Positions 9,413-34,412 of a DNA stretch of 64,000 bases are shown here, piece after piece. The stretch lies in contig JAJPKF010000020.1 of NCBI GenBank assembly GCA_021323865.1, positions 257,673 to 321,672 of the forward strand. Reading direction: 5' to 3'. Below the pieces are notes generated by a model. It saw only the letters and a program-made list of their open reading frames with translations, was not told where the DNA came from and made no database searches. This DNA comes from Pseudomonadota bacterium (GTDB taxonomy: Bacteria > Chloroflexota > UBA5177 > JAJPKF01). The stretch's first letter is position 1, and each line of letters starts with the position of its first letter. The translations under genes and the position numbers were made by a program.

Positions 9413-9421
9413 CTCACAAGA

Positions 9422-11921: not shown

Positions 11922-12249
11922 CGGATGACCACTCCTCGAGCCCAGCCCGCTGGCTGAGCTCGAGGAGGTGTCTCCCGGCACATGCCCGCCCAGGATCGCG
12001 GCTGCAGGGCCTGGTATGAATGTCGTGGTTCGAAGCAGTTACGAGGGCGACGTCCAGTGGCCTGGCGAGTCTTAGCAGGTCCGCTCGGATGAGGCTCCCA
12101 GCCGGCAGTAGACACCAGAACCGGGACTTGGGGCCATAGCCGGGACTGGCCTGCTGCTTCCGCCTCCTGGAGGAGAATCGTACTGGTCTCGCCGGACCTG
12201 TTCGATGCCGAGCCTCACCGAACGATATCCATGGAATGGAGACGCATCG

Positions 12250-13050
12250 ATGACGGAATTTCACGACCAAGATCTATCAGGCGCCACCTTTGAGCGCGTG
12301 AACCTCACGGATGCAAGGTTTACCAGAGTTGACTTCAGCGGCGCGGTGATACGTGGCAGCCTGCTGGAAGGAGTCCGGCTTCGTGGGGCCGAGCTGATTG
12401 ACGTGGAGATCAGCGCCGAGCTGCAGAACGTGGTCGTGAATGGCGTCAATATCGCGCCGCTCATCGACGCGGAGTTGAATCGGCGGATGCCCGAGCGGGC
12501 GAAGATGCGCCCCGAAAGTCCTGAGGCGTTTCGGGAGGCGTGGGCCATCCTCGAAGGGTTGTGGGCCGGAACCATTGAGCGTGCCCGTACCTTCCCGGAA
12601 GAGACACTGCATCAGAGCGCGAACGGCGAATGGTCCTTCATCCAAACCCTTCGGCACCTGAACTTTGCCACTGCCGCCTGGGTGGAACGGATGGTCCTCG
12701 GCAACCGCTCTCCCTGGCACCCGCTGGACCTCCCCTGGGACGAGGCTCCGGGTTGGGAGGGCATTCCCTGGGACCGGGAGGCTCGACCTTCCCTCGATGA
12801 GGTGCTGGCGGTCCGCGGTCGACGCCAGGCCACAGTGGCCCGGGTCCTCGCTTCCCTGACGCAAGAGCAGCTTGCCTCCGAGGTGACCCGGACAGAGCCC
12901 GGCTGGCCGCAAGTCGAGACCTTTCCGTTCAAGGAGTGTCTCCTCATCGTGATTAACGAGGAGTGGGAGCACCGACTCTATGCGGAACGCGATCTTACCG
13001 TCCTCGAAAAAGAGGCGCCGGAATCGCGGCGCGCATTCCCCACATCCTGA
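12250..13050 (+). CDS. Fusion protein: N-terminal pentapeptide repeats + C-terminal DinB_2/DUF664-like domain
   Basis: ATG at 12250 preceded by GGAGAC. N-terminus [47 protein letters not shown] (A(D/N)LxG pentapeptides). C-terminus [24 protein letters not shown]...[18 protein letters not shown] is DinB_2-like. Confidence 0.7.
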
Positions 13051-13104
13051 GCCTGGCGATGGGGCACACGGCCAATGCCGCCGCAGATAAGGTCGACCAA
13101 TCGG

Positions 13105-13520
13105 TCTCGCATATCGCCGACAGCCATGACTTCATCCGGGTGCAGGGACCACGAGAGAACAACCTCCAAGACGTGAGCATCGACATCCCCAAGCGCCGTC
13201 TGACGGTGTTCACGGGCGTCTCGGGCTTGGGCAAGAGCTCGCTGGTGTTCGATACCATAATCCCAGCGGCTGATCAATGAAACCTACAGCGCGTGCGTGC
13301 AGGGCTTTATGCCGGCGCTGACGCGACCGGATGTCGACGTGCTCGAGGGCCTGACCACCGTCATCAGGGATCAGCAGCGCATGGGGGCTGATCCACGCTC
13401 CACGTCGGGACCGCCACAGACGCGAACGCCATGCTACGTATCCTCTTCAGCCGCTTGGGGCGGCCCCACGTGGGGCCTCCCAATGCCTTCTCCTTCAATA
13501 CCCCCCTCGGTGCGCGCCGT
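13105..13520 (+). pseudogene. Remnant of a uvrA-like (excinuclease ABC subunit A family, possibly the short UvrA2/DrrC-type paralog) gene: N-terminal ~150 codons spread over three frames, remainder deleted
   Basis: Frame a: [45 protein letters not shown] (UvrA N-terminal Walker A). Frame b after a shift near 13262: [45 protein letters not shown] (matches UvrA ...SLSAYARQFL..KPDVDSIEGLSPAISIDQK..RNPRST). Frame c after a shift near 13400: NAMLRILFSRLGRPHV..NAFSFNTP (UvrA ...YDYLRLLFARVG.PHC...LFSFN). Similarity then ends ~13520 and the next gene begins at 13676. Confidence 0.6.
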
Positions 13521-13675
13521 GGGGGCCATCACCGTCGAACGGGGCCATCGCGGCACGGGGTTTCCAATCGGCTCGGGCTCAATGTGCCGCATCGACAGGC
13601 GTACTGCGAATCCCGCAGTCTCGTAACGGTTTCCGTAACGAATCTTGGACGCCACTTCGATAGACTGACGATGAA

Positions 13676-15424
13676 ATGGCGGCAGGACTTCGAGTTTCGC
13701 GGCTTCCGATATTCCGCAAGAGAGCGGGGTCGGAACCCGTCCCGTCCGCGGCTCCCCAAATGTCGGCGAAGTCGGTCATTGAACCGCTCGACATCGCGCC
13801 GAACGATCCGCTGCTGGCCTACTTGGTGTCGTCCCCCGGCGCCGTGGACATCCAGCAGTTGGAGCTGGATTCACCCGCCGTACGGTCGATGAAGGCAGCG
13901 GGCATCAAGCTGGCCGTGCCGCTGGTCTCTCAGGGTGAGCTTATCGGCATGCTGAATCTCGGGCAACGAATGAGTGAACAAGAGTACTCATCCGACGATC
14001 GCGCATTGCTGAACAATCTCGCTGCTCAAGCCACCCCGGCATTGCGAGTGGCCCAGCTGGTTCGCCAGCAACAGGCGGAAGCCAAGGAGCGGCAGCGCAT
14101 CGAACAGGAGCTACAAGTCGCGCGGCTCATCCAGCATACGCTCCTTCCCAAGAACCTCCCACAGGTTGAGGGTTGGCACGTCGCAGCGCACTACCAGCCC
14201 GCACGGGCCGTCGGCGGTGACTTTTACGATTTCATCGAAATGGAGGATGGTCGGCTGGGGCTCGTCGTCGGAGATGTTACGGACAAGGGAGTTCCCGCCG
14301 CACTGGTCATGGCGACCACTCGCAGCGTGCTGCGAGCAGCGGCGGAATCCATGGCCCGCCCGGGCGAGGTCCTGCGACAAGCCAATAACAAGCTGTGTCC
14401 CGACATTCCAGAAAACATGTTCGTCACCTGTCTGTTTGCCCTCCTCGATCCGGTTGAAGGTCGGCTCGTCTACGCCAACGCCGGCCACGACGCGCCCTAT
14501 CAGCGATCCGAGGCGGGCGTGGTCGAGCTGCGAGCTCGCGGTATGCCGCTCGGTCTCATGCCCGATATGGAGTATGAGGAGCTTGAGACCCAGCTGGCTC
14601 CGGGCGATGCCATCCTCTTCTACAGCGATGGGTTGGTTGAAGCACACAACTCAAACCGGGAAATGTTCAGCTTTCCGCGGTTGCGCGAGCTGCTTGCTCG
14701 GCACGTCATGTCGACGCCGGACGAGCTCGTTGACTTCCTGCTCGACAACCTGGCTCGCTTCACCGGACGTGAATGGGATCAGGAAGACGACATCACCTTG
14801 GTCACGCTCCAGCGCGTGCACAATGTCGCTCGCCACACGGCATTTGCCACGAGCATGCTGGAGGAGGTCGAACCGCCTCCGAGCGACGAGACCCAGGCTG
14901 CATATGGCGAGGAGACGCCTGGCACGGACGCAAGCGGCAAGGCGAGTTCCACAGATGCTCCGATGTCTGCCGTTCGACCCGCCGACGACGGGGCGATCTG
15001 GGACAGGATCACAAAGTTCGAAATCGCCAGCCGGCCAGGAAATGAGCGCGTCGCAATTGAGCGAGTGCGCGAGGCGTTAAGAAGCGTCGATCTTCCGGCC
15101 CGAACATGTGAGCGTTTGGAGACGGCGGTAGGCGAGGCGACGATGAATGCCATGGAGCACGGCAACAAGTATCAGTCCGATGTCACCGTCGTCATTTGCG
15201 TCGAGCTTTCTCCCCGAGCGATTCGGATCGGAGTTACAGACCAGGGGGAACCGATCCCCCTCGAGACTGAGGAGCCTGACCTAGAGCTGAAGCTGGCCGG
15301 GATGCAGAGCCCCCGCGGCTGGGGCATGTTTCTCATCAAAAACATGGTGGACGACATGCAGGTGGTGGACGATGCGGTCGGCCATACCCTGCAGCTGACT
15401 GTTCACCGGGAAAGGAGCCACTGA
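13676..15424 (+). CDS. Fused partner-switching regulator: partial GAF + PP2C (SpoIIE/RsbU-type) phosphatase + C-terminal RsbW/SpoIIAB-like HATPase (anti-sigma-factor-type Ser kinase) domain; real start possibly ~13760 (MSAKSV..)
   Basis: GAF C-terminal half ...GIKLAVPLVSQGELIGMLNLGQR. PP2C motifs LQVARLIQHTLLP, GGDFYDF, GLVVGDVTDKGVPAAL, DAILFYSDGLVEA. HATPase_c ...ETAVGEATMNAMEHGN...VVICVEL...RIGVTDQGEP....GWGMFLIKNMVDDMQV. Confidence 0.75.
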   Translation: MAAGLRVSRLPIFRKRAGSEPVPSAAPQMSAKSVIEPLDIAPNDPLLAYLVSSPGAVDIQQLELDSPAVRSMKAAGIKLAVPLVSQGELIGMLNLGQRMSEQEYSSDDRALLNNLAAQATPALRVAQLVRQQQAEAKERQRIEQELQVARLIQHTLLPKNLPQVEGWHVAAHYQPARAVGGDFYDFIEMEDGRLGLVVGDVTDKGVPAALVMATTRSVLRAAAESMARPGEVLRQANNKLCPDIPENMFVTCLFALLDPVEGRLVYANAGHDAPYQRSEAGVVELRARGMPLGLMPDMEYEELETQLAPGDAILFYSDGLVEAHNSNREMFSFPRLRELLARHVMSTPDELVDFLLDNLARFTGREWDQEDDITLVTLQRVHNVARHTAFATSMLEEVEPPPSDETQAAYGEETPGTDASGKASSTDAPMSAVRPADDGAIWDRITKFEIASRPGNERVAIERVREALRSVDLPARTCERLETAVGEATMNAMEHGNKYQSDVTVVICVELSPRAIRIGVTDQGEPIPLETEEPDLELKLAGMQSPRGWGMFLIKNMVDDMQVVDDAVGHTLQLTVHRERSH

Positions 15425-15786
15425 TGGCTAATGAGCCTCTTGAAGTAACGGTTCGCCGGCTCCCGGCCCTGACGGTTCTGGACCTCGAGGGAGAGATCAA
15501 CGGCTTGGCCGAGTCACGACTCAATCACGCTTACGCAGACGCGGAGGGTGCAGGGCCACGGACCGTATTGCTCAATTTTTCGGGCGTGGACTATATCAAC
15601 AGTACCGGCATCGCCCTGATCGTCAGCCTGCTCGGACGCGCACGAGCGAGTGGTCGCGAGCTGCGCGCCTGTGGCCTCAGCGAGCACTATGTCGAGATTT
15701 TCAACATCACCCGGCTGGCCGACTTCATGTCCGTGTTTCCGAATGAGGAAGCAGCAGTCAGTGAGGCTGCTCTGGGCGCCGGATAG
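15424..15786 (+). CDS. STAS-domain anti-sigma-factor antagonist (SpoIIAA/RsbV-like)
   Basis: LTVLDLEGEINGLAESRLNHAY...VLLNFSGVDYINSTGIALIVSL...RELRACGLSEHYVEIFNITRL is the STAS fold with its phosphorylatable Ser/Thr region. ATGA overlap with the upstream gene. Confidence 0.8.
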   Translation: MANEPLEVTVRRLPALTVLDLEGEINGLAESRLNHAYADAEGAGPRTVLLNFSGVDYINSTGIALIVSLLGRARASGRELRACGLSEHYVEIFNITRLADFMSVFPNEEAAVSEAALGAG

Positions 15787-15848
15787 AGGAAGAGGCGCCC
15801 CCGGGATCCGCGTCAGCTACCACACCACTGTGCAAACGAGAGGAAACC

Positions 15849-16193
15849 ATGGACCAAACACAGACGTTCGGCGTCCGGGCAACTGAGGGTGCAGCGGTCA
15901 TCGACATCACCGGCGAACTCAATGCCTCGAGCGACCCCGCACTTTCCGATGCCTATGCCCAGGCGTCCGAGCTGAGCGGGCTGATCCTCCTCAACTTCGC
16001 GGGTCTCGAGTACATGAATAGCTCGGGCATTGGCCTCCTCGTTACGCTGCTCATTCGGGCCAATCGGCAGAAGAAGCGCCTCGCGATCTGCGGCCTGTCT
16101 GACCACTACCGGCATATCTTCCAGATCACGAAGCTCGACGATGCGATGAAGATCTATGAAACCGAAGCGGACGCGTTAGGGAGCGATCGATAG
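15849..16193 (+). CDS. Second STAS-domain anti-sigma-factor antagonist
   Basis: AAVIDITGELNASSD...LILLNFAGLEYMNSSGIGLLVTL...KRLAICGLSDHYRHIFQITKL; paralog of 15424-15786. Confidence 0.8.
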   Translation: MDQTQTFGVRATEGAAVIDITGELNASSDPALSDAYAQASELSGLILLNFAGLEYMNSSGIGLLVTLLIRANRQKKRLAICGLSDHYRHIFQITKLDDAMKIYETEADALGSDR

Positions 16194-16236
16194 CGGCGTC
16201 CACTGACGGACGCCGAAGACCAAGTGGAGGATAACC

Positions 16237-17013
16237 ATGACCGAAAGCCGAGAGCAAAGAGCCTCGCAGATACCTCGTGACGCGGCCAACTGGGCGACAC
16301 AAACTGATGCCGTCAGGCTGTCGGCGGTCCCAACCGGGGCCCGGAATCTCAACGTAGAAGGGAAGCAGGCAGTCGGTCCACTTCAGGGCTTCGGACCAAT
16401 GTGGCAAAAGACCTACCGTGTCCGTCTCCAGGGAAGCGACGCCACGCCCAAGGATGTCATCGCGGCCTGGAAGGAGAACTTCCCCAAATTCTGGCCGCCG
16501 GGCAACACGTTCTATGCGCCGCTCACCGGCATTGCTCCAGGAGAGGCGGCCTTGATCAACTCCTCACTGCCTGGAGGAATGCCGCTCTCGACGGGGGTGA
16601 TGGTGCTCTACGCGGACGATGAGTCATTCACCCTGATGACCACCCAGGGCCATCCCTTCTCCGGTTGGGTGACCTTCAGCGCGACCGTCGAGTCGGAGGG
16701 AGGTATGACGTGCACCGTGGCCCAAGCGCAGGTGCTGATGCGCGCCAATGACCCACTTTATGCGGTTGGCATGCGGTTCGGCGGCCATAAGCAAGAGGAC
16801 CGCATCTGGGAGTGGACGCTGGCCTCCGTAGCGAAGCACTTCGGCGTCGAAGCGCAGGTCGACACCAATTGCCAGTGTGTCGACCGGAGGCCCCAGTGGA
16901 GGCGGGCGGGAAACATCTGGTACAACGCCGGAATTCGGTCGGGCATGTACGTGATGACGACGCCCGTGCGCTTCGTCGCGCGGCCATTCTCCCGTCCTCG
17001 CACGGGCGCATAG
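16237..17013 (+). CDS. Hypothetical soluble protein (no family recognised)
   Basis: 258-codon ORF with coding-like codon usage and a GGAGGATAACC RBS-like sequence upstream. No motif I can name. Confidence 0.5.
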   Translation: MTESREQRASQIPRDAANWATQTDAVRLSAVPTGARNLNVEGKQAVGPLQGFGPMWQKTYRVRLQGSDATPKDVIAAWKENFPKFWPPGNTFYAPLTGIAPGEAALINSSLPGGMPLSTGVMVLYADDESFTLMTTQGHPFSGWVTFSATVESEGGMTCTVAQAQVLMRANDPLYAVGMRFGGHKQEDRIWEWTLASVAKHFGVEAQVDTNCQCVDRRPQWRRAGNIWYNAGIRSGMYVMTTPVRFVARPFSRPRTGA

Positions 17014-17339
17014 CCCGTCGTCAACCAGAGCTGTCTGGGTTCGTCACCGGGGTGTGCACCAATCGAGAGGGCAAGCGGGGCATGACAAATTGGTAATTCC
17101 CCTCACGTGGTCCAGTTGAGCCCTTCAGACGCTGCGGCTCCGCTCCTCGGGGAGTTCAGGCGCACCACGGACATGACCCCTATTGGAGAATGGCCGCGAC
17201 AGATCCGTCTCGGCCGGCTTTCTCAGCGACTCGGGTCGTTTGTGCGGGAGCCGATGAATCTCCAGCCGGCCTACCGGCGGCTGGTTTCTGAGCCGGGGGT
17301 GCGAGGACTCGGTCGCGCTGCCACAGGAGGCGCATTCCG

Positions 17340-18536
17340 ATGATGGTCAAACCGGCAAACAGGCCACGTCTCTGGGTGCCGGTCTGGTTCATCACTGCCG
17401 CCACCGGAACCGCCGTCTGGATCGCAGGCCCGATCGTGGAGTGGACGCGTCTGCAGACCGTTTGTCACCATGAGTCTCGCTGCTTGAACACGCAGCTCAA
17501 CGTCATGGCCGCGCGGACCCTCACGCAGCACCACGTCTCGCTCGTGGACTACGCGTTGGGTTCGTTCGCCATGCTGGCCCTTCTCTGGGTCCTCTGGTAC
17601 GGGCTTGCGGCCCTCCTGGTGTTCAAACGTCCCGAGGACAGGGGCGCACTGCTGGCGGCCTTCTTCTTGGTCATCTTTCCGATGTGGGAGTACAGCGATC
17701 TCGTGCCCTGGTGGGGATGGCTCGGAGGAGTCTTCGTGGGAGTGCTGCTGCTCTTCGCCCTGATCTTCCCAGACGGGAGATTTCAGCCGCCCTGGACCAA
17801 GTGGCTTGCCGTCGCAGTAGCGTTGTTCTTCGGCCTCAACTTTCTGTCATCGCTCTCCTTCCTGAATGGGCCTCTGGGACTGGTCATGTTCGTTGGTCTG
17901 GTTGCGCTGGTGGTCGTCGCCCAGGTGCACCGGTTTCGGACCGTGTCGTCCTGGTCCGAGCGTCAGAGAACGAAGTGGGCCGTGTTGGGTCTGACAGCGG
18001 CCGTTGCCGGGGTGATGACCACCTGGCTCCTCGGCTCAATCCTGCCAATCCCAACCGGATCCGGCTCGATCTTCAGCGCTGTCGACAACCAGGTGGGCAC
18101 CGCTATGGTGATGTCGGTCATCCCAGTCTCGATGGCCGTGGCCGTCCTCCGGAACCGATTGTGGGACATTGACCGAGTCATGAGTCGGGCTCTGGCCTAT
18201 GCCGTCCTGACAGCCGTGGTCATCGGCGTCTACGTCGGGAGCGTGGTCGGGCTTCAGTCTCTCTTGGCGCTCTTCGCTCACAACGGCTCGCCCGTCGCCA
18301 TCGGGCTCTCGACTCTCGCCATCGTCGCCCTGTTTGGCCCGCTGCACAGGCGGATCCAGCGCACCGTCGAGCGAAGGTTCTACCGGGCCCGCTACGACGC
18401 GGCTCGTACGGTGGCTGCTTTCGGGGAGCGCCTTCGAGACCAAGTTGATCTTGAACAGCTTAGTCACGGCCTGACCGGTGTTGTCCGGGACACTCTTCAT
18501 CCCGAGCATGTGTCGCTTTGGCTGCGCCAGACGTGA
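17340..18536 (+). CDS. Paralog P1 of the seven-member array of ~10-TM membrane proteins (conserved C-x5-C ectoloop; C-terminal RRFYRARYDAARTV...HPEHVSLWLR tail)
   Basis: GGAGG then ATG. TM1, then TVCHHESRCLNTQLNV, then ~9 more hydrophobic helices with conserved loops RPEDRGA, FPDGRFQPPWTKW, HRFRTVSSWSERQRTKWA, LRNRLWDIDRV, then the tail. Followed by hairpins. Confidence 0.8.
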   Translation: MMVKPANRPRLWVPVWFITAATGTAVWIAGPIVEWTRLQTVCHHESRCLNTQLNVMAARTLTQHHVSLVDYALGSFAMLALLWVLWYGLAALLVFKRPEDRGALLAAFFLVIFPMWEYSDLVPWWGWLGGVFVGVLLLFALIFPDGRFQPPWTKWLAVAVALFFGLNFLSSLSFLNGPLGLVMFVGLVALVVVAQVHRFRTVSSWSERQRTKWAVLGLTAAVAGVMTTWLLGSILPIPTGSGSIFSAVDNQVGTAMVMSVIPVSMAVAVLRNRLWDIDRVMSRALAYAVLTAVVIGVYVGSVVGLQSLLALFAHNGSPVAIGLSTLAIVALFGPLHRRIQRTVERRFYRARYDAARTVAAFGERLRDQVDLEQLSHGLTGVVRDTLHPEHVSLWLRQT

Positions 18537-18546
18537 CAAGGATGAC

Positions 18547-18588
18547 GGGCTGGCGAAAACGTTTCCCAGCCCCCGCCACTTGGGAAAC
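18547..18588 (+). terminator. Two overlapping, mutually exclusive GC-rich hairpins in the P1-P2 spacer (terminator/attenuator-like); a 12-bp palindrome GGCGCCGGCGCC follows at 18628-18639
   Basis: gggctgg(18547-53)/ccagccc(18566-72) and gtttccca(18561-68)/tgggaaac(18581-88) share nucleotides, so only one can form. This is the only sizeable spacer inside the array besides the P4-P5 gap. Confidence 0.3.
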
Positions 18589-18678
18589 GGTCGCCGCGGA
18601 CATTTTGGGCGTGTGGACCGACCCCTTCGGCGCCGGCGCCTTTTGGCCTGAGCAGTTCTCTCCCTTGATCCGTACCCG

Positions 18679-19923
18679 ATGAGCACTCGGAGCGTATCGA
18701 CTGCTGACCTGTCGCCGCGGACGGCTCGAATCGCCCAGATTGTGTGCCTTGTGTTGATCGCCGGAGGGGTCGCCCTGCTCGTGGCTGCCCTCGTCTGGAT
18801 GTGGCCTGGCATGGTCCACCCATGCGCACGGCTTACGACGTGTCAGCAATACCAGCTTGACTCGGCATCGGCCCAATTCCTGAGCCGGCACGACATCAGC
18901 CTCAGCGCTTATGCAACCGGCCTTGCCTTCCTCCTGATCCTCACCACGCTCGTATGGTACGCGCTGGCGGCTTTGATCCTCTGGAAGCGGCCCGGAGACC
19001 GGGGCGCAATCGTGGCGGCCTTTTTCCTTGCCCTGTTTCCTCAGCTCCCGCTTGGCACAATTACCAACTGGGATGCTGGAGCCGACGCCTCTATTGGGCT
19101 GGTAGCGCTGATCATCTTCGGTCTCCTGTTTCCGGACGGTCACTTCAAGCCCCGATGGACCCGGTGGTGGGCACTCGGGGTCTTCGTCATGCTTGTGGCC
19201 ATTTCATTTACTCCAGGTTCCAGCAGCGGGAACGGGAACTTCCTGTGGGTCGTCCCCGTCCTTGTGCTTCCCGCCGCCGTGGTCGGGACGCAGATTTACC
19301 GGTATCGCAAGTTGTCGACGTGGTCTGAGCGTCAACGCTCGAAGTGGGCGTTCTTCGGCATTATTTCAGGGATTCTGGGTATCATCCTCGTCTTTGTTAC
19401 CGGCACGATCACCCAGCCTTCGACCACGGCCGGAATGGGCGGCGGCGACCTGTCGGGACTCTGGGTCAGCGCCGGAATCGTTATCTTTCCGCTCGCCATT
19501 CCCGTCTCGATCACCATCGCGCTGCTTCGGAGCAACCTATGGGACATTGACCACATCATCAGTCGGGCTCTGGCCTACGCCGTCTTGAGCGCGGTCATCG
19601 TGGGGGCGTACATCGGTGGCGTTGTCGGCCTCCAGTCCCTCTTCGCGCTGTTCGCCCACAACGGCTCGCCGGCGGCCATCGCCCTATCGACGCTCGCAAT
19701 CGTGGCACTCTTCGGCCCAATGCTCAGACGCATCCAGCGCATTGTGGACCGAAGGTTCTATCGGAGCCGGTATGACGCCGCCCGCACGGTTGCCACCTTC
19801 GGCGAGCGGCTGCGTGACCAGGTCGATCTGGGCCAGCTTTCCTCCGGCTTGACCGCCGTTGTCCATGAGGCCCTTCATCCGGAGCATGTATCGTTGTGGC
19901 TCCGAGAGATGAGGGAAGGGTGA
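18679..19923 (+). CDS. Paralog P2 of the membrane-protein array
   Basis: CARLTTCQQYQLDSASAQFL..., RPGDRGA, FPDGHFKPRWTRW, YRYRKLSTWSERQRSKWA, LRSNLWDIDHIISRALAYAVLSAVIVGAYIGGVVGLQSLFALFAHNGSP, DRRFYRSRYDAARTVATFGERLRDQVDLGQLSSGLTAVVHEALHPEHVSLWLREMREG. Confidence 0.8.
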   Translation: MSTRSVSTADLSPRTARIAQIVCLVLIAGGVALLVAALVWMWPGMVHPCARLTTCQQYQLDSASAQFLSRHDISLSAYATGLAFLLILTTLVWYALAALILWKRPGDRGAIVAAFFLALFPQLPLGTITNWDAGADASIGLVALIIFGLLFPDGHFKPRWTRWWALGVFVMLVAISFTPGSSSGNGNFLWVVPVLVLPAAVVGTQIYRYRKLSTWSERQRSKWAFFGIISGILGIILVFVTGTITQPSTTAGMGGGDLSGLWVSAGIVIFPLAIPVSITIALLRSNLWDIDHIISRALAYAVLSAVIVGAYIGGVVGLQSLFALFAHNGSPAAIALSTLAIVALFGPMLRRIQRIVDRRFYRSRYDAARTVATFGERLRDQVDLGQLSSGLTAVVHEALHPEHVSLWLREMREG

Positions 19924-21113
19924 CGGACAGGCAGAAGATATTCGCACTCCGCGCCGTCTGGTCCGCGGTCGCCATCGGGGTTTCAGTCGTCTGGGCTCAA
20001 GCCTTCACCGCCGGCATCGGCCGACTAATGTCGGTGTGTCATGTCGCCTCCGCATGCTCGAGCTATCAGCTCGATGGCCCGGCGTCCCGTGTGCTTACGG
20101 ACCATGGCATCCCGCTCGCCCTCTATGCCGGCATCACGGCTGTAGTCACAGTCGGAGCCTGGCTGGTCTGGTTTGGGCTGGGGGTCCTGCTGGTCTGGAG
20201 GAGACCGCGGGATCGCGGAGCCTACATCTCGGCGCTGTTCCTTGCCGTCTTTCCCCTGATGTTCGCGTCGCTTTGGGCGGCGACGACGGCGCAAACGAAG
20301 CTCTTCTCCGGAATCGCCATCTTCTCGCTGATTCCACTCCTGCTGCTGTTTCCGAACGGCCGGTTCGTCCCGCGCTGGACCTGGGTATTCCTCACCTTCG
20401 TTTCGATCCTGGTGGCCTACGGTCAACTGACGAGGGGGCACTTGTTGCACAAGGCCCTCGGCCCGTTCGGAGCCGTCATTGTCCTCCTGATTGCGATGGG
20501 CCTGCAGATTCATCGATTTCGCTCCATATCATCGTGGCGGGAGCGCCAGCAGACGAAGTGGGCCACACTGGGGCTCTGTGCCTGCGTCATCGGCTTCGCC
20601 GCGACGCTGCTGCCCATACTCATCGGCAAGGTCGCTACGAATTCGCTCTACTCAGACTTCGTCGACATCCTTCTCGCCCTCACCACATCGGCCATTCCCA
20701 TCACCTTAGCGATCGCCGTCCTGAGGAGCGGGCTCTGGGACGTTGACCACATCATCAGTCGGGCTCTGGCCTACGCCGTCTTGAGCGCGGTCATCGTGGG
20801 GGCGTACATCGGTGGCGTTGTCGGCCTCCAGTCCCTCTTCGCGTTATTCGTGCACAATGGCTCTCCGCCGGCGATCGCCCTGTCGACACTCGCCATCGTC
20901 GCTTCGTTTGGTCCACTCCGGAGACGGATCCAGCACGTCGTTGACCGGCGCTTCTACCGAAGCCGGTACGATGCCTCGCTCACATTGGCCGCCTTCGGCA
21001 AGCGGCTTCGGGATCAGGTCGATCTCGGAGAGCTCTCTCATGACCTGACGGGTGTTGTTCACGAGACCCTGCACCCTGAGCACGTTTCGCTGCGGCTGCG
21101 AGCTCCAGGATGA
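19920..21113 (+). CDS. Paralog P3 of the membrane-protein array (GTG start overlapping the P2 stop, GTGA)
   Basis: VTDRQKIFALRAV...SVCHVASACSSYQLDGPASRVL..., RPRDRGA, FPNGRFVPRWTW, HRFRSISSWRERQQTKWA, LRSGLWDVDHIISRALAYAVLSAVIVGAYIGGVVGLQSLFALFVHNGSP, DRRFYRSRYDASLTLAAFGKRLRDQVDLGELSHDLTGVVHETLHPEHVSLRLR. Confidence 0.8.
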   Translation: MTDRQKIFALRAVWSAVAIGVSVVWAQAFTAGIGRLMSVCHVASACSSYQLDGPASRVLTDHGIPLALYAGITAVVTVGAWLVWFGLGVLLVWRRPRDRGAYISALFLAVFPLMFASLWAATTAQTKLFSGIAIFSLIPLLLLFPNGRFVPRWTWVFLTFVSILVAYGQLTRGHLLHKALGPFGAVIVLLIAMGLQIHRFRSISSWRERQQTKWATLGLCACVIGFAATLLPILIGKVATNSLYSDFVDILLALTTSAIPITLAIAVLRSGLWDVDHIISRALAYAVLSAVIVGAYIGGVVGLQSLFALFVHNGSPPAIALSTLAIVASFGPLRRRIQHVVDRRFYRSRYDASLTLAAFGKRLRDQVDLGELSHDLTGVVHETLHPEHVSLRLRAPG

Positions 21114-22282
21114 GAGCGACAGTCGAAGCTGTCTTGCGCCGGCACTCGCGGCTGCTGGCCCGGTTGGTATGGGTCGCACTGACCGCGATCGTTCTAGCCG
21201 TCTTCGTCTCGCAAATTCCGGAGGAGTGGAGCTCCCTCGCGACCGTCTGCCGCGGAGCGGCTGCCTGTGCGAATCGGGGCGGTCTCGACGCGTCGGCGGC
21301 TCACACCCTCATCCGACACGGCATTTCCCTACCGGTCTTTGCGTCGCTCATCGTCATGTTCTCGACCACCGTGCTCGCGATATGGGTCCTCCTGGGTGGC
21401 CTCATCGTGTGGCTCAAGCCCGACGATCGAGGAGCCCTGGTCGCTGCTTACTTTCTGGCCGTCTTTCCCCTGTTGCTCGATTCACAGATCCCGCTCGCCG
21501 TCACCTTCACGGCCCTGATTCTCTTTGGCCTGCTGTTTCCTGACGGACACTTCCAGCCTGGGTGGGCGAGATGGCTGGCTGCGGCCGCGCTTGTCGGCGC
21601 CGCCGCTTCCCCATTTGCCGGTGCCCCCGCCGGCATCGCTTCTCTGGTCCTGCTTCTGGCAGCGATCCCGCTCCAAATCTACCGCTTTCGGAAGGTGTCG
21701 ACCTGGGAGCAACGCCAGCAAACCAAGTGGGCCGTCTTCGGGCTAACCGCGACCGTGCTCGGCTTCATTGTGCTGCTGCCGATCTTCAAATTCGGAGCCG
21801 GCTCCCTGGGCGGCGTACTTCTCCAGAACCTCGGCTTCATTACCGTTATCACGATAATGCCGGTCTCCATGGCCCTGTCCGTGCTTCGGAACCGCCTGTG
21901 GGATATCGACCGGATCATCAGCCGCGCCCTGGGCTATGCCCTCCTGAGCGCGGTCACCGTGGGCGCATACGTCGGAGGTGTCGTCGGCTTCCAGTCACTC
22001 TTTGGGCTGTTCGCTCACGACGGCTCCCCTGTTGCCATTGCCCTGTCCACCCTGGCAATTGTGGCGCTGTTTGGCCCCCTGCGCAGACGCATCCAGCAAA
22101 TTGTCGATCGACGGTTCTATCGAAGTAGATACGATGCGTCCCGCACACTCGCCACTTTCGGCGAGCGGCTGCGTGACCAGGTCGATCTGGGCCAGCTTTC
22201 CTCCGGCTTGACCGCCGTCGTCCATGAGGCCCTTCATCCGGAGCATGTATCGTTGTGGCTCCGAGAGATGAGGGAAGGGTGA
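21110..22282 (+). CDS. Paralog P4 of the membrane-protein array (ATGA overlap with P3)
   Basis: TVCRGAAACANRGGLDASAAHTL, KPDDRGA, FPDGHFQPGWARW, YRFRKVSTWEQRQQTKWA, LRNRLWDIDRIISRALGYALLSAV, DRRFYRSRYDASRTLATFGERLRDQVDLGQLSSGLTAVVHEALHPEHVSLWLREMREG (3' end nearly identical to P2 at DNA level). Confidence 0.8.
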   Translation: MRATVEAVLRRHSRLLARLVWVALTAIVLAVFVSQIPEEWSSLATVCRGAAACANRGGLDASAAHTLIRHGISLPVFASLIVMFSTTVLAIWVLLGGLIVWLKPDDRGALVAAYFLAVFPLLLDSQIPLAVTFTALILFGLLFPDGHFQPGWARWLAAAALVGAAASPFAGAPAGIASLVLLLAAIPLQIYRFRKVSTWEQRQQTKWAVFGLTATVLGFIVLLPIFKFGAGSLGGVLLQNLGFITVITIMPVSMALSVLRNRLWDIDRIISRALGYALLSAVTVGAYVGGVVGFQSLFGLFAHDGSPVAIALSTLAIVALFGPLRRRIQQIVDRRFYRSRYDASRTLATFGERLRDQVDLGQLSSGLTAVVHEALHPEHVSLWLREMREG

Positions 22283-22411
22283 CGGACACGCAAAAGATAT
22301 TCGCACGCCGTGCCGAGCACCTACATGGGGAACTGGACAACGACCGGCTGTCCAAGGAGCTCTGGTCTGGGCCTTGCACCCCGCGTCAGTCTCCATCACG
22401 TTGAGGGAGCC

Positions 22412-23650
22412 ATGAGGCCTGTCCGACTAGACGCAAGGAGGAGCCGCTTCCGAGGAGTGCGTCACGAGCGGGCGGTGCAGGCACTGTGGCTTGCGATGGC
22501 GCTGTTCGGCAGCGCTCTGTGGGCTGGCATTCCAATCTCTCAGTGGGGCCGCCTACTGCGCGTGTGCCGGCCCGTCTCAACCTGTGCCCAGTTTCAGCTC
22601 GACGCAGCCTCCGCTGGCCTCCTCCAGCAGCGCGGGGTCTCGCTCGACGATTACGCGATGTTTACGGGCATCGTTCTCGCCACAGGCTGGACGATCTGGT
22701 ACGGCATGTCGGCGCTCGTCATCTATCGCAAGCCCGGGGAGCGGGCAGCGTTGATATCCGCCTTCTTTCTCTTGGTCATGCCCCTGGCAGCCGTCGCCCT
22801 CTGGGTTTCGTGGGGGCTGCTTCTAGCCCTGGCCTCTCTCGCGGCGCTGAACCTCTTTGGCCTCCTGTTCCCCGACGGACGATTCTCACCCCGTTGGACC
22901 CGCTGGCTGGGGATAGGCGTGGTGGCGGCATGCGGTTTCTTGGCGATTCCGGTCTTCGCCAACTCGTCGTTTTATTGGGTCATCCCGCTTTTCGTCGTTC
23001 CGCTTCTCATAGCCGCGCTTCAGATCTATCGGTTCCGCGCCATTTCCTCGTGGCGTGAGCGTCAGCGTAGCAAGTGGGTCTTTCTGGGCCTCGGGACCGG
23101 TCTGGCGGCTTTCCTTTCCATCATCGTCACCCTGAATTTCGTTGGGGCCGGTAATAGTAGCAACGGCACCTTGGGCGGTGGCACGCTGGCGGGTGCACTG
23201 GTAACTCCCGTGTTTGTAATCGGCATCGGCCCGGTGCCGCTTTCAATAGGCATTGCGATTTTGCGCAGCGGCCTCTGGGACATAGATAGGGTGGTTAGTC
23301 GCGCACTGGGGTACTCAGTGTTGACCGTGATCCTCGGGGCTATCTACATCGGCGGAGTGATTGGCCTCCAGGGACTGATCGGCTTGATCGCCGGAAACGG
23401 CTCAGCCGCGGCCGTCGTACTGTCGACGCTAGTGGTGGCCGCTCTCTTTGGCCCACTCCGTCGCCGCCTCCAGAATCTTATCGATAGCCGCTTTTACAGG
23501 TCCCAGTATGACGCCGCGCGAATGGTCAGGAGCTTTGCCGAGCAACTACGGGACGAAGTAGACGTAGACCGGCTCTCAACCGACTTGTCCTCGATCGTGC
23601 GCCAGGCCCTCCATCCTTCACACGTCTCGCTTTGGCTTAGGGAGCAATGA
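22412..23650 (+). CDS. Paralog P5 of the membrane-protein array (ATG at 22412 after GAGGGAGCC; the ORF-track start at 22310 is probably too early)
   Basis: RVCRPVSTCAQFQLDAASAGLL, KPGERAA, FPDGRFSPRWTRW, YRFRAISSWRERQRSKWV, LRSGLWDIDRVVSRALGYSVLTV, DSRFYRSQYDAARMVRSFAEQLRDEVDVDRLSTDLSSIVRQALHPSHVSLWLREQ. Confidence 0.75.
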   Translation: MRPVRLDARRSRFRGVRHERAVQALWLAMALFGSALWAGIPISQWGRLLRVCRPVSTCAQFQLDAASAGLLQQRGVSLDDYAMFTGIVLATGWTIWYGMSALVIYRKPGERAALISAFFLLVMPLAAVALWVSWGLLLALASLAALNLFGLLFPDGRFSPRWTRWLGIGVVAACGFLAIPVFANSSFYWVIPLFVVPLLIAALQIYRFRAISSWRERQRSKWVFLGLGTGLAAFLSIIVTLNFVGAGNSSNGTLGGGTLAGALVTPVFVIGIGPVPLSIGIAILRSGLWDIDRVVSRALGYSVLTVILGAIYIGGVIGLQGLIGLIAGNGSAAAVVLSTLVVAALFGPLRRRLQNLIDSRFYRSQYDAARMVRSFAEQLRDEVDVDRLSTDLSSIVRQALHPSHVSLWLREQ

Positions 23651-24846
23651 CATACATCGTCTCGGAGCAGCGCTGGAGACAGGTCGCCTGGCTACTCCTC
23701 GCGCTTTGGGGCGCGGTATTGTGGCTCGCGGGCCCTGCCTCACAGTCGCTGAGAATCCGGTCGATTTGTCGCCCTCTCTCCTGTAGCTCCTATCAGCTGG
23801 GTGCGCCGGCCGCCTCGACGCTCTCCGGCCACGGCATATCCCTCACGGCCTATGCCGTCTTCACTGTCCTCGTCCTGGGCTTCTTATCCGTCGTCTGGTA
23901 TGGCCTGGCCGGACTCATCATCCTGCGCGAGCCGGACAACCGGGGGGCGGTCATGGCCGCCTTCTTCCTCGTCGCCTTCCCGCTCTTGGAGGTCGCGACC
24001 TGGATCCCAAGCGCACCGTCAGGGCTGAAGAGCCTATTACCGGCGACCGGCGTCGCGGTGCTCCTGCTCTTCTGTCTCCTGTTCCCGGATGGCACCTTCG
24101 CTCCCGGTTGGGCCCGATGGCTCGTGCCTTTGGCTCTGGCGGGAGGTCTCTCGGCCTATCTGCCTCTGCTCCCGCGAGGCGTCGTCCTGGCCATCGCGCT
24201 GGCGTCGGTGGTGGCTGCCCAGGTTGCTCGCTTCCGGACGATATCATCCTCGGCTCAGCGTCAGCAGACCAAGTGGGCGCTCTATGGTGTGATCGCGGCC
24301 GCCGTTGCCTTCGCCACGCTGGCGGCGGGATTCCTGGTCGTGCCTGCCGCTCAGACCGGACCCGGCGGACTATACCGAAGCTTCGCGAACAGCACCGGTC
24401 TCGCCCTGGCAGCGTCCCCAATTCCCATAAGCACCGGCATCGCCATCTTGCGCTACCACCTGTGGGACATCGACCGCGTCGTCAGCCTCACCCTCGGCTA
24501 TGCGCTCCTGACGGCGATGTTGGCGGGTCTTTACATCGCCGGCGTCATCCTCCTGGAACAGCTCGTCCAGGTCTTCACGCCCAGTGGCTCTGACGCCCCC
24601 ATTGCGCTGTCGACGCTTACGGTCGTGGCCCTGTTTGGACCGCTGCGGCGCCGAATCCAGACGGGTATTGACCGGTACTTCTATCGTGCGAAGTACGATG
24701 CCGCGCGCACCTTGGCGGCCTTCGGCGACCGGCTTCGACGTGAAGTCGATTTGGATGCCGTGAGCCGCGACCTCACCGGCGTGGTCGAAGAAGCGCTCAG
24801 GCCCGAGCGAGTAACGCTCTGGGTGCGCACCGAGGCAAAGTCGTGA
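23647..24846 (+). CDS. Paralog P6 of the membrane-protein array (ATGA overlap with P5)
   Basis: SICRPLSCSSYQLGAPAASTL (C-x4-C variant), EPDNRGA, FPDGTFAPGWARW, ARFRTISSSAQRQQTKWA, LRYHLWDIDRVVSLTLGYALLTA, DRYFYRAKYDAARTLAAFGDRLRREVDLDAVSRDLTGVVEEALRPERVTLWVR. Confidence 0.75.
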   Translation: MTYIVSEQRWRQVAWLLLALWGAVLWLAGPASQSLRIRSICRPLSCSSYQLGAPAASTLSGHGISLTAYAVFTVLVLGFLSVVWYGLAGLIILREPDNRGAVMAAFFLVAFPLLEVATWIPSAPSGLKSLLPATGVAVLLLFCLLFPDGTFAPGWARWLVPLALAGGLSAYLPLLPRGVVLAIALASVVAAQVARFRTISSSAQRQQTKWALYGVIAAAVAFATLAAGFLVVPAAQTGPGGLYRSFANSTGLALAASPIPISTGIAILRYHLWDIDRVVSLTLGYALLTAMLAGLYIAGVILLEQLVQVFTPSGSDAPIALSTLTVVALFGPLRRRIQTGIDRYFYRAKYDAARTLAAFGDRLRREVDLDAVSRDLTGVVEEALRPERVTLWVRTEAKS

Positions 24847-26111
24847 GTCGCCGTTCCAGTTTCCTTTGGGCTCGTCGCGGAGAGGTCGCTGGCGTGAGTA
24901 GCGGGAACGGGGCCTCGGGACGCATGTTTGGCCGGGAGACGGAGCTCGGCATCAGAGTGGCCTGGGCGCTGGTGGCGAGCGCCGTTACCATCACCTGGGC
25001 AGTGGCCGTGGCGGCTCAATGGAAATCGCTGACCTCGGTATGTCATCGAGCATCCAGCTGCACGAACTTCCAGATGGACGAGGCCACCGCCCATCTGTTG
25101 GCCGCCCACGGCATTCAGCCGGAAGTGTACGGGGTGTACACCGCTCTGGGGCTGGCACTGGTGTGGGCGGTATGGTGTGGACTTGGTGGACTGATCGTCT
25201 GGCGGCGCCCGCGAGAGGTGGGAGCCGTGGTATCCGCCTTCTTCATGGTCCTCTTCCCGCTGTTCGAGATCAGCTTTTGGTTTCCCAGCGGCAACGGCTC
25301 CCAGCTCATGGGAGCCGTTGCGTTCCTGGCGTTAACCATGTTCTACCTGCTCTTCCCCAATGGCAGCTTCGCCCCACGCTGGTTTCGCTTCGTCCCCATC
25401 GCCCTCATTCCTTTAGGGCTGATTTCCAACTTCCTGCCATGGCTCCTCGGGCCGATGCTCCTCGTGTTTTTCCTCAGTGTTTCTGGCAGTCAGATTTATC
25501 GCTTCCGCATGGTGTCCTCTTGGAAAGAGCGACAGCAGACCAAGTGGACAGTGGCCGGCCTGTTGGTTTCCATACTGCTGTTTGTCGCCGTGGCGGTGGT
25601 CCCATTCAGCGTGGATCCAAAGGTTGGGTATTCAGGCACCGGATATGAGGTGCTCACCATCACCCTGGTGCCGATTGTCACGACGCTCATTCCGCTCTCC
25701 GTGGGGGCGGCCATCTTTCGCAGCGGCCTTTGGGATATCGACCGCATCATCAACCGCGCTCTCGTTTACGGCGTCCTCAGCATCGCGCTGGCCGTCGCCT
25801 ATGTGGGCGGCGTTCTGGGGCTCGAGGCGCTGTTCAGACTCTTCATACGGGGCAGCGCGGCGCCAGCGATCGTCGTTTCGACGCTCGCCATTGCCGCCCT
25901 CTTCGGGCCGCTTCGACGGCGAATTCAGGATGCCATCGACCGGCGCTTCTATCGAGCCAGATACGACACCGCCCGAATCCTTTCCGCCTTCGGTGACCGG
26001 CTTCGGCAGGAGGTGGACCTGATGAATCTCACGCAGGACATGACCTCGGTAGTACAGGAGACGCTGCGTCCAGAGCACGTGTCGATTTGGCTGAGCGGGG
26101 AGATGTCATGA
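24843..26111 (+). CDS. Paralog P7 of the membrane-protein array (GTGA overlap with P6; an alternative ATG at 24927 is possible)
   Basis: SVCHRASSCTNFQMDEATAHLL, RPREVGA, FPNGSFAPRWFRF, YRFRMVSSWKERQQTKWT, FRSGLWDIDRIINRALVYGVLSIA, DRRFYRARYDTARILSAFGDRLRQEVDLMNLTQDMTSVVQETLRPEHVSIWL. Confidence 0.75.
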   Translation: MSRRSSFLWARRGEVAGVSSGNGASGRMFGRETELGIRVAWALVASAVTITWAVAVAAQWKSLTSVCHRASSCTNFQMDEATAHLLAAHGIQPEVYGVYTALGLALVWAVWCGLGGLIVWRRPREVGAVVSAFFMVLFPLFEISFWFPSGNGSQLMGAVAFLALTMFYLLFPNGSFAPRWFRFVPIALIPLGLISNFLPWLLGPMLLVFFLSVSGSQIYRFRMVSSWKERQQTKWTVAGLLVSILLFVAVAVVPFSVDPKVGYSGTGYEVLTITLVPIVTTLIPLSVGAAIFRSGLWDIDRIINRALVYGVLSIALAVAYVGGVLGLEALFRLFIRGSAAPAIVVSTLAIAALFGPLRRRIQDAIDRRFYRARYDTARILSAFGDRLRQEVDLMNLTQDMTSVVQETLRPEHVSIWLSGEMS

Positions 26112-26226
26112 CGTCGGGCCTGTCCGGCTCGGGCCTGCCAACAGTAGCGGCATTTGAGCCGGTATCCAACCAGGTTTCTGGGTACCCGATTCACCGTCGT
26201 CAAACAAAGTGTAAGGAGGAGAACAG

Positions 26227-26682
26227 GTGGTACGAGCGTTTCGAGTCGTCTGGGCGTCACTCATCTGGTTGTTTATGATCATGATTCCGATTCAGTTCTA
26301 CCTGGCGGGCCACGGAGCAATGGAAGGAGCACATGCCGCCGACAAAGGGATCAGGCCCATGAAGACTGGGTGGGACCCGCATGCCTCATTCGGTACGATC
26401 ATGCTGCTGGTGTCGCTTCTGGTGCTCCTGGCTGCTCTCCCCGCCCGTCCGACACGCCGGCTTCTGGGCATGAGCGTAGCTCTATTCGTCTTCATGGTCA
26501 TCCAGTTCGTGCTGCCCTTCTTCAACGATTCGGCCGGCACTCGTTGGGTCGCTGCCTTTCACGGCGTCAACGCATTGATCGTTACCGGCCTGGCAATGGG
26601 TCTCATCATCCGGACACGACCCTACTGGCCATTCACGAAGTCCGAGGCTGCAGAGGCGGAGGCCGGCGCTGCCATGACATGA
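26227..26682 (+). CDS. Small integral membrane protein (4 predicted helices), hypothetical
   Basis: AGGAGGAGAACAGGTG Shine-Dalgarno. ASLIWLFMIMIPIQFYLAG; IMLLVSLLVLLAAL; VALFVFMVIQFVLPFF; ALIVTGLAMGLII. Confidence 0.55.
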   Translation: MVRAFRVVWASLIWLFMIMIPIQFYLAGHGAMEGAHAADKGIRPMKTGWDPHASFGTIMLLVSLLVLLAALPARPTRRLLGMSVALFVFMVIQFVLPFFNDSAGTRWVAAFHGVNALIVTGLAMGLIIRTRPYWPFTKSEAAEAEAGAAMT

Positions 26683-26904
26683 AGTGAGTTCGGTTGGGCA
26701 TCACTCATTCAGCCGCACCTTCAAAGACCGGGCATGAGGGCCAATCCGGAAAGTTGTCAGGCGAGTTGTGGCCCAACCGCCACCCGAACGAGCATCTCCG
26801 GGATATTCTGTCCGGCCAACGTGACTGCACGAGGAGGTGGGACGTCTAGCGTTGGTCTCCGATCGGTGCGGGAGCCAGGTTGCCCTCAGCCTCGCGCATT
26901 GCGA

Positions 26905-29802: not shown

Positions 29803-30178
29803 TCCAGATTGTATTGAAGCGTCGATGGTTTGGGCGAGTTGGCAAGGCTCAGCCTTCCAAAGCTGGCCCGGAGTTGATCTCAGCGGACAGTGCCGCGCCG
29901 TCTCGCTTCTAGGCCGACTGTACTCTCATTGCCCGCTCCTGCCTGGGCCCACTTCTGAGCCTCTCTTCTGACCTTTGCCGCGATGCGTCCGGCGGTCGGA
30001 GCTATTCCGAGTCGGTTTTCTCCCGCTGCGCACAGATACACCGAGATCTGCAACGTGGCATGTACGAAAAGAACCGAATTGATATGACGGATTGGCGCTT
30101 CATCGGGAGGCAGTCATAAAGGCCGGCCAGGTCGAGGTCCGCAGGCGACTTGGACCGCTGGTAGGAGCGGTGAGGAAG

Positions 30179-30697
30179 TCACCGCGGGCCCAACCCGGTG
30201 CGCCCGTCGATCAGCTCTCGCGCGATGTCCAGATGGCCGGCATGCCGGGCGGTCTCTTCGATCATGTGCAGCACAACCCAGCGCACATCGGGCGGTTCCT
30301 CCATCTCCGGGTCGCCATGCCTTCCCAGCGGCTTGGACGACATCGGTGTCGCCGACAGCACTGCATCAGACCGGGCGCATTGGTCCCGGTAGAACGCGAC
30401 GATGTCCGCCGACGGCAGCTCGGAGACAAACGCCGCCGTCGGGTCATAGGGTGTCATATCCGCGTCGGGCGGTGGCGCCGGGCGAATGCCTGCCACGACG
30501 CCCTGAAACCAGTGCCACTCTGCGCCGCCGAGATGTTCGACCAATCCAGCCGGCGTCCAACCGGAAGGCACCACCGACTGGTGCCAGCCCTCTTCGTCCA
30601 GACCATCCACGATGGAAAGCACCGCGCCTCGCTGGGCCTGCAGAAAGGCCAACAGCGCACCATCATTTTGTTCTTGGGAATCGTCGGTCATAGTCAT
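30179..30697 (-). CDS. DinB_2/DUF664-like protein (start at ATG 30697 after GGGAGG; ORF-track start 30859 is too long)
   Basis: MTMTDDSQEQNDGALLAFLQAQRGAVLSIVDGLDEEGWHQ...VVLHMIEETARHAGHLDIARELIDGR; paralog of 442-1077. Confidence 0.65.
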   Translation of the reverse strand: MTMTDDSQEQNDGALLAFLQAQRGAVLSIVDGLDEEGWHQSVVPSGWTPAGLVEHLGGAEWHWFQGVVAGIRPAPPPDADMTPYDPTAAFVSELPSADIVAFYRDQCARSDAVLSATPMSSKPLGRHGDPEMEEPPDVRWVVLHMIEETARHAGHLDIARELIDGRTGLGPR

Positions 30698-34407: not shown

Positions 34408-34412
34408 GCGCG

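Follow-up and report, generated by a model that had tools for sequence, protein, structure and literature searches.

In a tandem array of diverged paralogs, how can two non-adjacent genes come to end in the same sequence, and what is the DNA that separates the second of them from its downstream neighbour? The question is raised by a stretch of 64,000 nucleotides (nt), hereafter the window, from the forward strand of contig JAJPKF010000020.1 (GenBank assembly GCA_021323865.1, positions 257,673 to 321,672), deposited as Pseudomonadota bacterium and placed by GTDB in Chloroflexota (UBA5177; JAJPKF01). Window positions 17340-26111 hold a membrane-protein array of seven head-to-tail paralogs on the plus strand, P1 to P7, whose proteins are 390-422 amino acids (aa) long and share 39-54% pairwise identity. 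Start and stop codons overlap by four bases (GTGA or ATGA) at P2/P3, P3/P4, P5/P6 and P6/P7, and spacers are present only at P1-P2 (142 nt) and P4-P5 (129 nt). Analysis revealed that the 3' end of P4 is nearly identical to that of P2 and is followed by sequence like the start of P3. We prefer, with modest confidence, to explain this by a templated insertion in one step, in which about 152 nt of the P2/P3 junction would have entered P4 and displaced its old tail. The elements concerned are the following.

18679-19923, plus strand: P2, the putative donor gene, 414 aa; the exact protein is also present on JGI contig L026.
19920-21113, plus strand: P3, 397 aa, with GTG start at 19920-19922; the JGI gene call on contig L024 uses the same start.
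21110-22282, plus strand: P4, the putative recipient gene; according to the AlphaFold2 model its product of 390 aa is a multi-helix membrane protein.
22412-23650, plus strand: P5, 412 aa; its ATG at 22412 agrees with the JGI gene call on contig L023.
19798-19929, plus strand: tract core, donor copy, comprising the last 41 codons of P2 (FGERLRDQ...SLWLREMREG), TGA, and the overlapping P3 GTG plus first three P3 codons.
22157-22288, plus strand: tract core, recipient copy, comprising the present P4 3' end (41 codons and stop) and the copied P3 start codon with its ribosome-binding context.
19930-19956, plus strand: lower-identity tail of the tract on the donor side, P3 codons 4-12 plus one base.
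22289-22315, plus strand: copy of P3 codons 4-12, non-coding in the P4 context.
22279-22404, plus strand: open reading frame (ORF) of 41 codons, regarded as a by-product of the event, with a P3-type GTG (22279-22281), 11 P3-like codons, codons of the relic and TGA (22402-22404).
22312-22415, plus strand: putative relic of a paralog 3' end, recognised by pairwise alignments to the tails of P5 and R1 (see below) and by frame translations.

The tract was measured by ungapped comparison at an offset of 2359 nt. Its core is identical at 131 of 132 positions (19798-19929 and 22157-22288), the single mismatch being T at 19860 and C at 22219. The original prediction, which had described the 3' ends of P2 and P4 as near-identical, is thereby borne out, except that its right-hand limits (19930 and 22289) are one base too long, as a mismatch lies there. 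Identity continues at 23 of 27 positions in the tail (19930-19956 and 22289-22315, with mismatches at 19930, 19934, 19948 and 19952), so that the whole copied piece spans 159 bases across the end of P2 and the start of P3. Both limits are sharp. The last upstream mismatch is at 19797, and P2/P4 identity over 19500-19797 is about 75-80% (background about 77%); downstream of 19957 and 22316 identity drops to about 20-30%, i.e. to random level. The proteins P2 and P4 share a C-terminus that ends in HPEHVSLWLREMREG before the stop. In the donor copy, the GTG of P3 (19920-19922) overlaps the TGA of P2 (19921-19923) as GTGA. This shared C-terminus, the GTG start, the frame of 41 codons that runs from its copy to the TGA at 22402-22404 and the separate P5 ATG at 22412 had all been read correctly from the beginning.

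Identity of the tract extends to synonymous positions. Third codon positions are 98% identical within it, compared with 50-53% over the preceding 200-300 nt. Where both genes specify the same amino acid, 40 of 41 codons are identical in the tract as opposed to 37 of 78 in the 300 nt before it (Fisher p = 4e-9). The codon alignment of the seven genes has 889 polymorphic sites, on which a GENECONV-style permutation test was performed (2000 permutations). Only two pairs stand out from the permutation maximum of 24, namely P2-P4 with a run of 41 and P2-P3 with one of 71; the latter signal corresponds to a second tract (see below) that the original prediction had not described. Bounded excess identity, identity at synonymous sites and discordant trees of N- and C-terminal parts, three features by which non-allelic conversion is recognised, are present. 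The P2/P4 identity is accordingly best read as recent copying and not as constraint at the protein level. The earlier claim that the P2/P3 stop-start junction was copied onto the end of P4, across a gene boundary, agrees with the tract identity, the permutation test and the synonymous sites alike.

What, then, is the spacer between P4 and P5? P3-like sequence accounts for 33 of its 129 nt (blastn match of the spacer copy to 19924-19956 at 87.9%) and ends abruptly at 22315/22316. Further P3-like sequence past 22316 was found neither by blastn nor by window-wide comparison of chunks. The proposal that a decayed P3 start follows P4 has therefore to be given up past this point, and the copied junction, which had been held to explain the spacer, does so for these 33 nt only. 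The ORF of 41 codons, which terminates 7 nt upstream of the P5 ATG, has no match in Pfam, was not called by the JGI gene caller and has no credible homologue among 22 related loci searched by tblastn. Its sole tblastn match (locus L004, E = 0.02-0.04) is in fact the family's own C-terminal motif. For that reason, the spacer was tested directly as a paralog tail.

The rest of the spacer very probably derives from the 3' end of a paralog, of which it would be a frameshifted relic. This reading rests on pairwise alignments to P5 and to R1, judged by shuffles and by window-wide rank; R1 is the first paralog of a syntenic locus in a related Chloroflexota genome (L027; DASRCF010000123.1, 3102-6713). 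Smith-Waterman alignment of the segment 22309-22415 to the final ~115 nt of P5 extends from end to end and scores 52, compared with 18 +/- 3.2 for shuffles (z = 10.7). With the anchoring ends of the relic trimmed, the P5 tail ranks first of 844 window chunks taken from both strands. Alignment to the R1 tail scores 56, shuffles reaching 19 +/- 3.3. Identity over the first 42 nt of the relic is 79% to R1 and 71% to P5, as opposed to 43-57% to other paralogs of the window. This first part translates as AEHLHGELDNDRLSKEL, to be compared with the family consensus F(G/A)E.LRDEVD..LS..L. The last part, after a frameshift, reads ALHPASVSITLREP followed by a stop, its family counterpart being ALHPEHVSLWLRE, one variable residue and a stop. 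The TGA of the relic (22413-22415) and the ATG of P5 overlap as ATGA, precisely the arrangement by which P3 is joined to P4 and P5 to P6, and the GAGGGAG that precedes this ATG is located within the relic. Tested as a displaced segment, the spacer thus holds a tail relic that starts at the codon expected, and its owner would be either P4 or a lost gene, X. We consider it probably to be the old tail of P4 itself.

The order of sequences at the locus is simple: the body of P4 up to TTC G, then 152 nt of P2/P3 (19801-19952), then GCC G, then the paralog tail. The left junction is in register and falls within the conserved 3' third of the genes; it lies in TTCG, at a codon that P2 and P4 have in common, and is preceded by collinear homology of ~77%. 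The right junction is formed by a microhomology of 4 nt, GCCG (22312-22315), where P3 (GCC G/TC, codons 12-13) is joined to the tail (GCC G/AG, second codon); no similarity was found beyond it on either partner. The relic begins at 22312-22315, in the codon after the conserved F, and the tract begins at the same F codon of P4 (22157). Such a match would be predicted by insertion, while it would be a coincidence of about 1% if the relic came from another gene. Deletion of 22160-22311, when about 10 nt of decay are allowed, restores a gene of ~388 codons joined to P5 by ATGA, which resembles the P3/P4 and P5/P6 junctions. An insertion of 152 nt also accounts for the frame of the first part of the relic, which is that of P4 plus 2.

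The process we propose is non-allelic, homology-anchored copying of a short DNA between paralog junctions, in which the copy would have been inserted and not swapped in. The copied piece would extend from the P2 codons F-G-E-R (19798/19801) through the P2 stop and the P3 start to P3 codon 12 (19952/19956), and the insert would amount to 152 nt (19801-19952) plus the shared junction bases, entering at the homologous TTC G of P4. A break-repair or replication strand may have left P4, copied P2/P3 across the stop/start junction of the upstream paralog, and returned to P4 beside its point of departure, to be rejoined there by microhomology. P4 would thereby have gained the last 41 codons of P2 and its stop, its own last ~38 codons being shifted downstream and out of frame. 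The TGA of this displaced tail would formerly have overlapped the P5 ATG, like the four other internal junctions. This tail, altered since by deletions and a frameshift, and the 33 nt copied from the start of P3 would now make up the spacer of 129 nt, which would thus owe its existence to a single templated insertion. The donor is likely to have been P2/P3, since only in P3 do the 12 copied codons lead on into the family N-terminal motif R-x-V-W; the geometry of the relic likewise points to copying from P2/P3 to P4. The 41-codon ORF may be translated, with the copied start of P3 as its initiation site, and translational coupling of P5 may thereby be maintained.

Further traces of exchange were found in the array and in related ones. 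Interparalog tracts were detected by a k-mer diagonal scan; self-blastn missed them, since they merge into long alignments of lower identity. Three more elements are relevant here.

19547-19647, plus strand: second conversion tract, P2 copy, 101 nt, exact, in the conserved 3' third (LWD.DHIISRALAYAVLSAVIVGAYIGGVVGLQSLFA).
20743-20843, plus strand: second conversion tract, P3 copy, an exact match to P2 19547-19647.
18542-18682, plus strand: ORF of 46 codons in the P1-P2 spacer (MTGWRKRF...WPEQFSPLIRTR, then stop), running from ATG at 18542 to TGA at 18680-18682, its stop overlapping the P2 ATG.

In neighbour-joining trees, P1-P4 cluster in the C-terminal third only; in the tree of the N-terminal two-thirds, each of them groups with genes of other genomes. 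Because of this discordance, the conserved 3' third appears to evolve in concert within the array, the gene bodies being ancient. Interparalog tracts of other arrays are mostly situated in the same 3' third. L022 has an exact tract of 127 nt and another of 198 nt at 99% identity, L006 an exact one of 352 nt besides one of 327 nt at 99.1%, and L002 an exact one of 97 nt. The second exact tract of 101 nt, the C-terminal clustering of P1-P4 and the tracts in other arrays together argue that the array is recombinationally active. A scan for relics in the spacers of other arrays yielded self-overlap artefacts only. As to the size of these arrays, L022 (JGI Ga0372956_0009894, 11 kilobases (kb)) contains at least 9 family copies, and on the Chloroflexota contigs L022, L006, L011 and L012 the number of tandem copies ranges from 5 to 11 or more.

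The P1-P2 spacer (region 18537-18682) is composite as well. Positions 18529-18638, i.e. the end of P1 and part of the spacer, align without gaps (109 nt) to 19907-20016, the P2/P3 junction with the first 32 codons of P3 (z = 7.7), and this P3-like start is contained in the ORF of 46 codons. The last 12 codons of the spacer ORF bear a faint and weak resemblance to the family C-terminus (z <= 2.4). This spacer is probably the relic of an internally deleted paralog, and the array may therefore once have had eight or nine genes. No homology between the P1-P2 and P4-P5 spacers was found by blastn.

The syntenic locus L027 (also represented by L028) contains three paralogs as compared with seven here. 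Two of them, R2 and R3, are orthologous to P6 and P7 (83% and 85% identity, respectively). R1 is a mosaic of a P2-type body (64%) and a tail of the P5/relic type (68%), a composition suggesting that the conserved 3' third has been subject to crossovers or conversions in the past.

Several observations weigh against insertion in one step. The upstream anchor is today only about 77% identical, which is low for pairing of the RecA type. The last 27 nt of the tract are more diverged than its core (4/27 vs 1/132, Fisher p = 0.003; p = 0.07 when compared with synonymous sites only). This may reflect neutral drift of a non-coding copy, or else there may have been two events, the later one a conversion by which the coding part was re-homogenised. 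A P3-like gene start is also present in the P1-P2 spacer, where an internally deleted gene is the simpler explanation, and the P4-P5 spacer could have arisen likewise. The affinity of the relic to R1 and P5 is not continued into P4 upstream of the junction, P5 being likewise not R1-like in that region. With respect to the relic itself, a generic tail profile (nhmmer) matches it collinearly but is weak when taken alone (E = 0.89 over 64 kb), and matches of a protein hidden Markov model (HMM) to the spacer are collinear, each of them weak. Finally, no close outgroup was found by exact-protein look-ups of P3 and P4 or by two metagenome scans, with the P5 protein and with a degenerate P5 start.

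The most serious alternative is that a further paralog, X, once stood between P4 and P5. The P4/X junction, homologous to that of P2/P3, would have been homogenised with it by ordinary two-sided gene conversion, and a separate deletion between two GCCG motifs would have removed X from codon 13 to the position F/AE, so that the first 33 nt and the last ~100 nt of X would remain as the spacer. The similarly composite P1-P2 spacer fits this course of events, as do the junction blocks of a gene end followed by a P3-like start, seen three times, and the occurrence of pseudogenised copies elsewhere (e.g. the frameshifted L002 19418-20465). The relic is moreover closest to the tail of R1, of which X could be the orthologue. 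In that case, however, the start of X should resemble R1 or P2 and not P3, and an illegitimate right end would be required all the same. Two or three events have to be assumed, and the endpoint of the deletion would have to coincide with the left edge of the tract within about 4 nt, for which the chance is about 1% in a gene of 1.17 kb. We therefore regard a lost gene X as possible though unlikely.

Unequal crossing-over had been anticipated by the original prediction, together with variation in copy number. The latter is supported by the seven genes here and three in L027, but the tract itself does not have the form expected of a crossover, as similarity to P2/P3 does not continue downstream and stops 33 nt past the stop codon. 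A crossover could be reconciled with this if an in-register exchange between P2 and P4 duplicated P3-P4 (P4 body/P2 tail - P3' - P4' - P5) and a later deletion extended from codon 13 of P3' to the corresponding site of P4'. The segments would then follow one another as observed, copy number at the locus is variable, and R1, a P2-type body on a P5-type tail, is what crossovers in the conserved 3' third would give. Two large rearrangements are nevertheless required, the second with its endpoint exactly on the first, which is strictly less parsimonious than insertion in one step. The intermediate was not seen in any of the three assemblies. We hold this scenario to be very improbable.

These assemblies also bear on the reality of the tract. 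The same strain was found in two other public assemblies, JGI and Logan. JGI contig Ga0070739_10000040 (L024) equals window 7340-22218 with one mismatch; it covers the P4 body and runs on through the first 62 nt of the tract. A further JGI contig, Ga0070739_10002552 (L023), equals window 22220-36111 with two mismatches; on it, the final 69 nt of the tract are followed by four spacer-specific variants and by P5. A Logan contig (L025; SRR5579884) equals window 16485-19576 and ends 30 nt into the 101-nt tract of P2/P3. At the level of contigs, the left half of the P4 copy is thus independently tied to P4-specific and the right half to spacer-specific sequence, and the tract is not an artefact of this window's assembly alone. 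It could be objected that a short-read metagenome assembly followed a chimeric path through similar paralogs, given that the JGI break at 22219 falls within the P4 copy and the Logan break within the 101-nt tract, i.e. where assemblers struggle. Breaks of short-read contigs are, on the other hand, an expected effect of repeats of such length. Upstream of 22157, where a mismatch occurs about every 5 nt, shared k-mers are absent, yet L024 joins P4-specific sequence to 62 nt of the tract, and L023 joins 69 nt of it to the spacer variants and P5. In addition, the decayed relic would be unusable as a tail for P4, which needs the copied one to have a family-like end. A misassembly is accordingly extremely unlikely. 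The two JGI contigs abut with a gap of one base at 22219, the position of the sole P2/P4 mismatch in the core. This base is the least certain one; it may be polymorphic in the population or may have been left unresolved by the assembler.

Selection on a functional element shared by the stop/start junctions, be it a structured RNA or a regulatory site, can hardly have kept the tract identical, for although it holds a functional stop/start overlap and the Shine-Dalgarno-like GGGAAGGG, identity covers 41 ordinary coding codons with all synonymous sites but one, the other five junctions lack the sequence, and in the tract and spacer there is no promoter or terminator signal, no Rfam match and no sign of structured RNA (folding z-scores of -0.68 and +1.16).

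How does the proposed insertion compare with known systems? Programmed cassette systems of the pilE/pilS or vlsE type combine one expression site with promoterless, truncated silent donor cassettes. In contrast, all seven copies of the present array are full-length ORFs with start codons, mostly chained by overlaps of 4 nt. The core process is ordinary interparalog gene conversion, and this case is a new example of a known process. Gene conversion between paralogs and concerted evolution of multigene families in prokaryotes have been surveyed (PMC6053082), and conversions among the PE/PPE genes of Mycobacterium tuberculosis are described (PMC12046097, PMC13061034). The locus shares with them a short tract, identical including synonymous sites, between otherwise diverged paralogs, a phylogeny of the converted region at odds with the rest of the gene, and the location of tracts where paralogs are most similar. 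It differs in that the tract ends in non-homologous DNA past the stop codon and has the look of a net insertion with the old segment retained, unlike replacement of like for like.

In this last respect, one-step insertion resembles the displacement of C-terminal regions in rhs genes and polymorphic toxins and the displacement of effectors of the Vibrio type VI secretion system. Both are attributed to homology-facilitated illegitimate recombination (PMC5361080, where Jackson et al. 2009, PMC2935791, is cited on such displacement). In both cases an incoming 3' segment is anchored by homology upstream, is illegitimately joined at its far end and takes over the reading frame, and the former 3' end is moved downstream as an orphan remnant. 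The differences are considerable. The donor here would be an array paralog 2.3 kb away and not horizontally acquired DNA, and the segment measures about 150 nt instead of a whole toxin/immunity module. The displaced piece is a conserved tail and not a variable tip, there is one remnant and no string of them, and nothing points to a toxin or immunity function.

The remaining genes of the array and its neighbourhood are as follows.

17340-18536, plus strand: P1.
23647-24846, plus strand: P6.
24843-26111, plus strand: P7.
13676-15424: GAF-SpoIIE-HATPase_c_2 protein, upstream flank.
15424-15786 and 15849-16193: two STAS anti-sigma-antagonist-like proteins, upstream flank.
16237-17013: unannotated protein of 258 aa, upstream flank.
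26227-26682: DUF6220 membrane protein, downstream flank.
26905-29802, minus strand: BTAD-AAA-TPR regulator of 965 aa, downstream flank.

The flanks of L027/L028 have the same composition: a SpoIIE/HATPase_c_2 phosphatase, two STAS proteins, a protein of 257 aa, DUF6220 and the BTAD-AAA-TPR regulator. This conservation hints at an array that feeds a partner-switching pathway. Within the array, codons of the conserved C-terminal motif ...LRE.. (AGGGAG, GGGAAGGG or CCAGGA) double as the Shine-Dalgarno sequence of the next paralog (19905-19923, 21100-21113, 22399-22415 and 23636-23650). As start codons overlap stops and the LRE codons act as Shine-Dalgarno sequence, the protein tail and the downstream translation signal are the same DNA.

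A Pfam search of P1-P7 returned no domain and no family. The AlphaFold2 model of P4 predicts an all-helical, multi-pass membrane protein (mean predicted local distance difference test, pLDDT, of 86.5). A fold search with this model against PDB gave no significant match, merely a generic seven-helix resemblance at a template modelling (TM) score of about 0.3, and a profile search of PDB sequences with the family gave zero matches. The nearest named model is NCBIfam PrsK (TIGR02916), to which the N-terminal region matches at E = 1.4e-6, far under cutoff. In longer distant homologues, the same module of ~400 residues is fused to GAF, HisKA_3 and HATPase_c domains (L014, L015, L016, L017, L019, L020 and L021 were examined), and in one homologue to a Ser/Thr kinase domain instead. 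P1-P7 match the N-terminal ~400 residues of the longer homologues over their full length and terminate ~25-30 residues into the position at which GAF begins there. For this reason, they are kinase-less, stand-alone versions of the N-terminal membrane module of sensor histidine kinases. Unlike such kinases, they have no HisKA and HATPase_c domains, the catalytic domains being confined to the longer distant homologues; they occur in tandem arrays and have neither a Pfam family nor a solved structural relative. The first extracytoplasmic loop contains two nearly invariant cysteines, which in P4 are C47 and C53. The family is distributed among metagenome-assembled genomes of Chloroflexota, where its genes often stand in tandem, 3 to 11 or more to an array.

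For this locus, the analysis implies that the P4-P5 spacer would be gene debris and not a regulatory region, its 41-codon ORF having arisen along with it, and that the C-terminal 41 residues of P4 are uninformative on the ancestry of this gene. There is now also a known reason why short-read assemblies break at the locus. A much more speculative and rather improbable idea is that copying across junctions recurs as a means of re-assigning cytoplasmic C-terminal segments among paralogs, the two in-frame mini-ORFs 18542-18682 and 22279-22404 being kept for translational coupling of the downstream gene; if true, it would represent a small-scale, intragenomic analogue of rhs C-terminal displacement in Chloroflexota arrays. 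The family is uncharacterised and, with its arrays beside partner-switching genes and a BTAD-AAA-TPR regulator, possibly worth a study of its own. If one-step insertion is the right reading, P4 offers a clean natural case of a copy event between bacterial paralogs, with one homologous end, one microhomology end and a displaced segment that is still legible, and the array would show concerted evolution of a conserved module alongside ancient divergence of the remainder of the gene.

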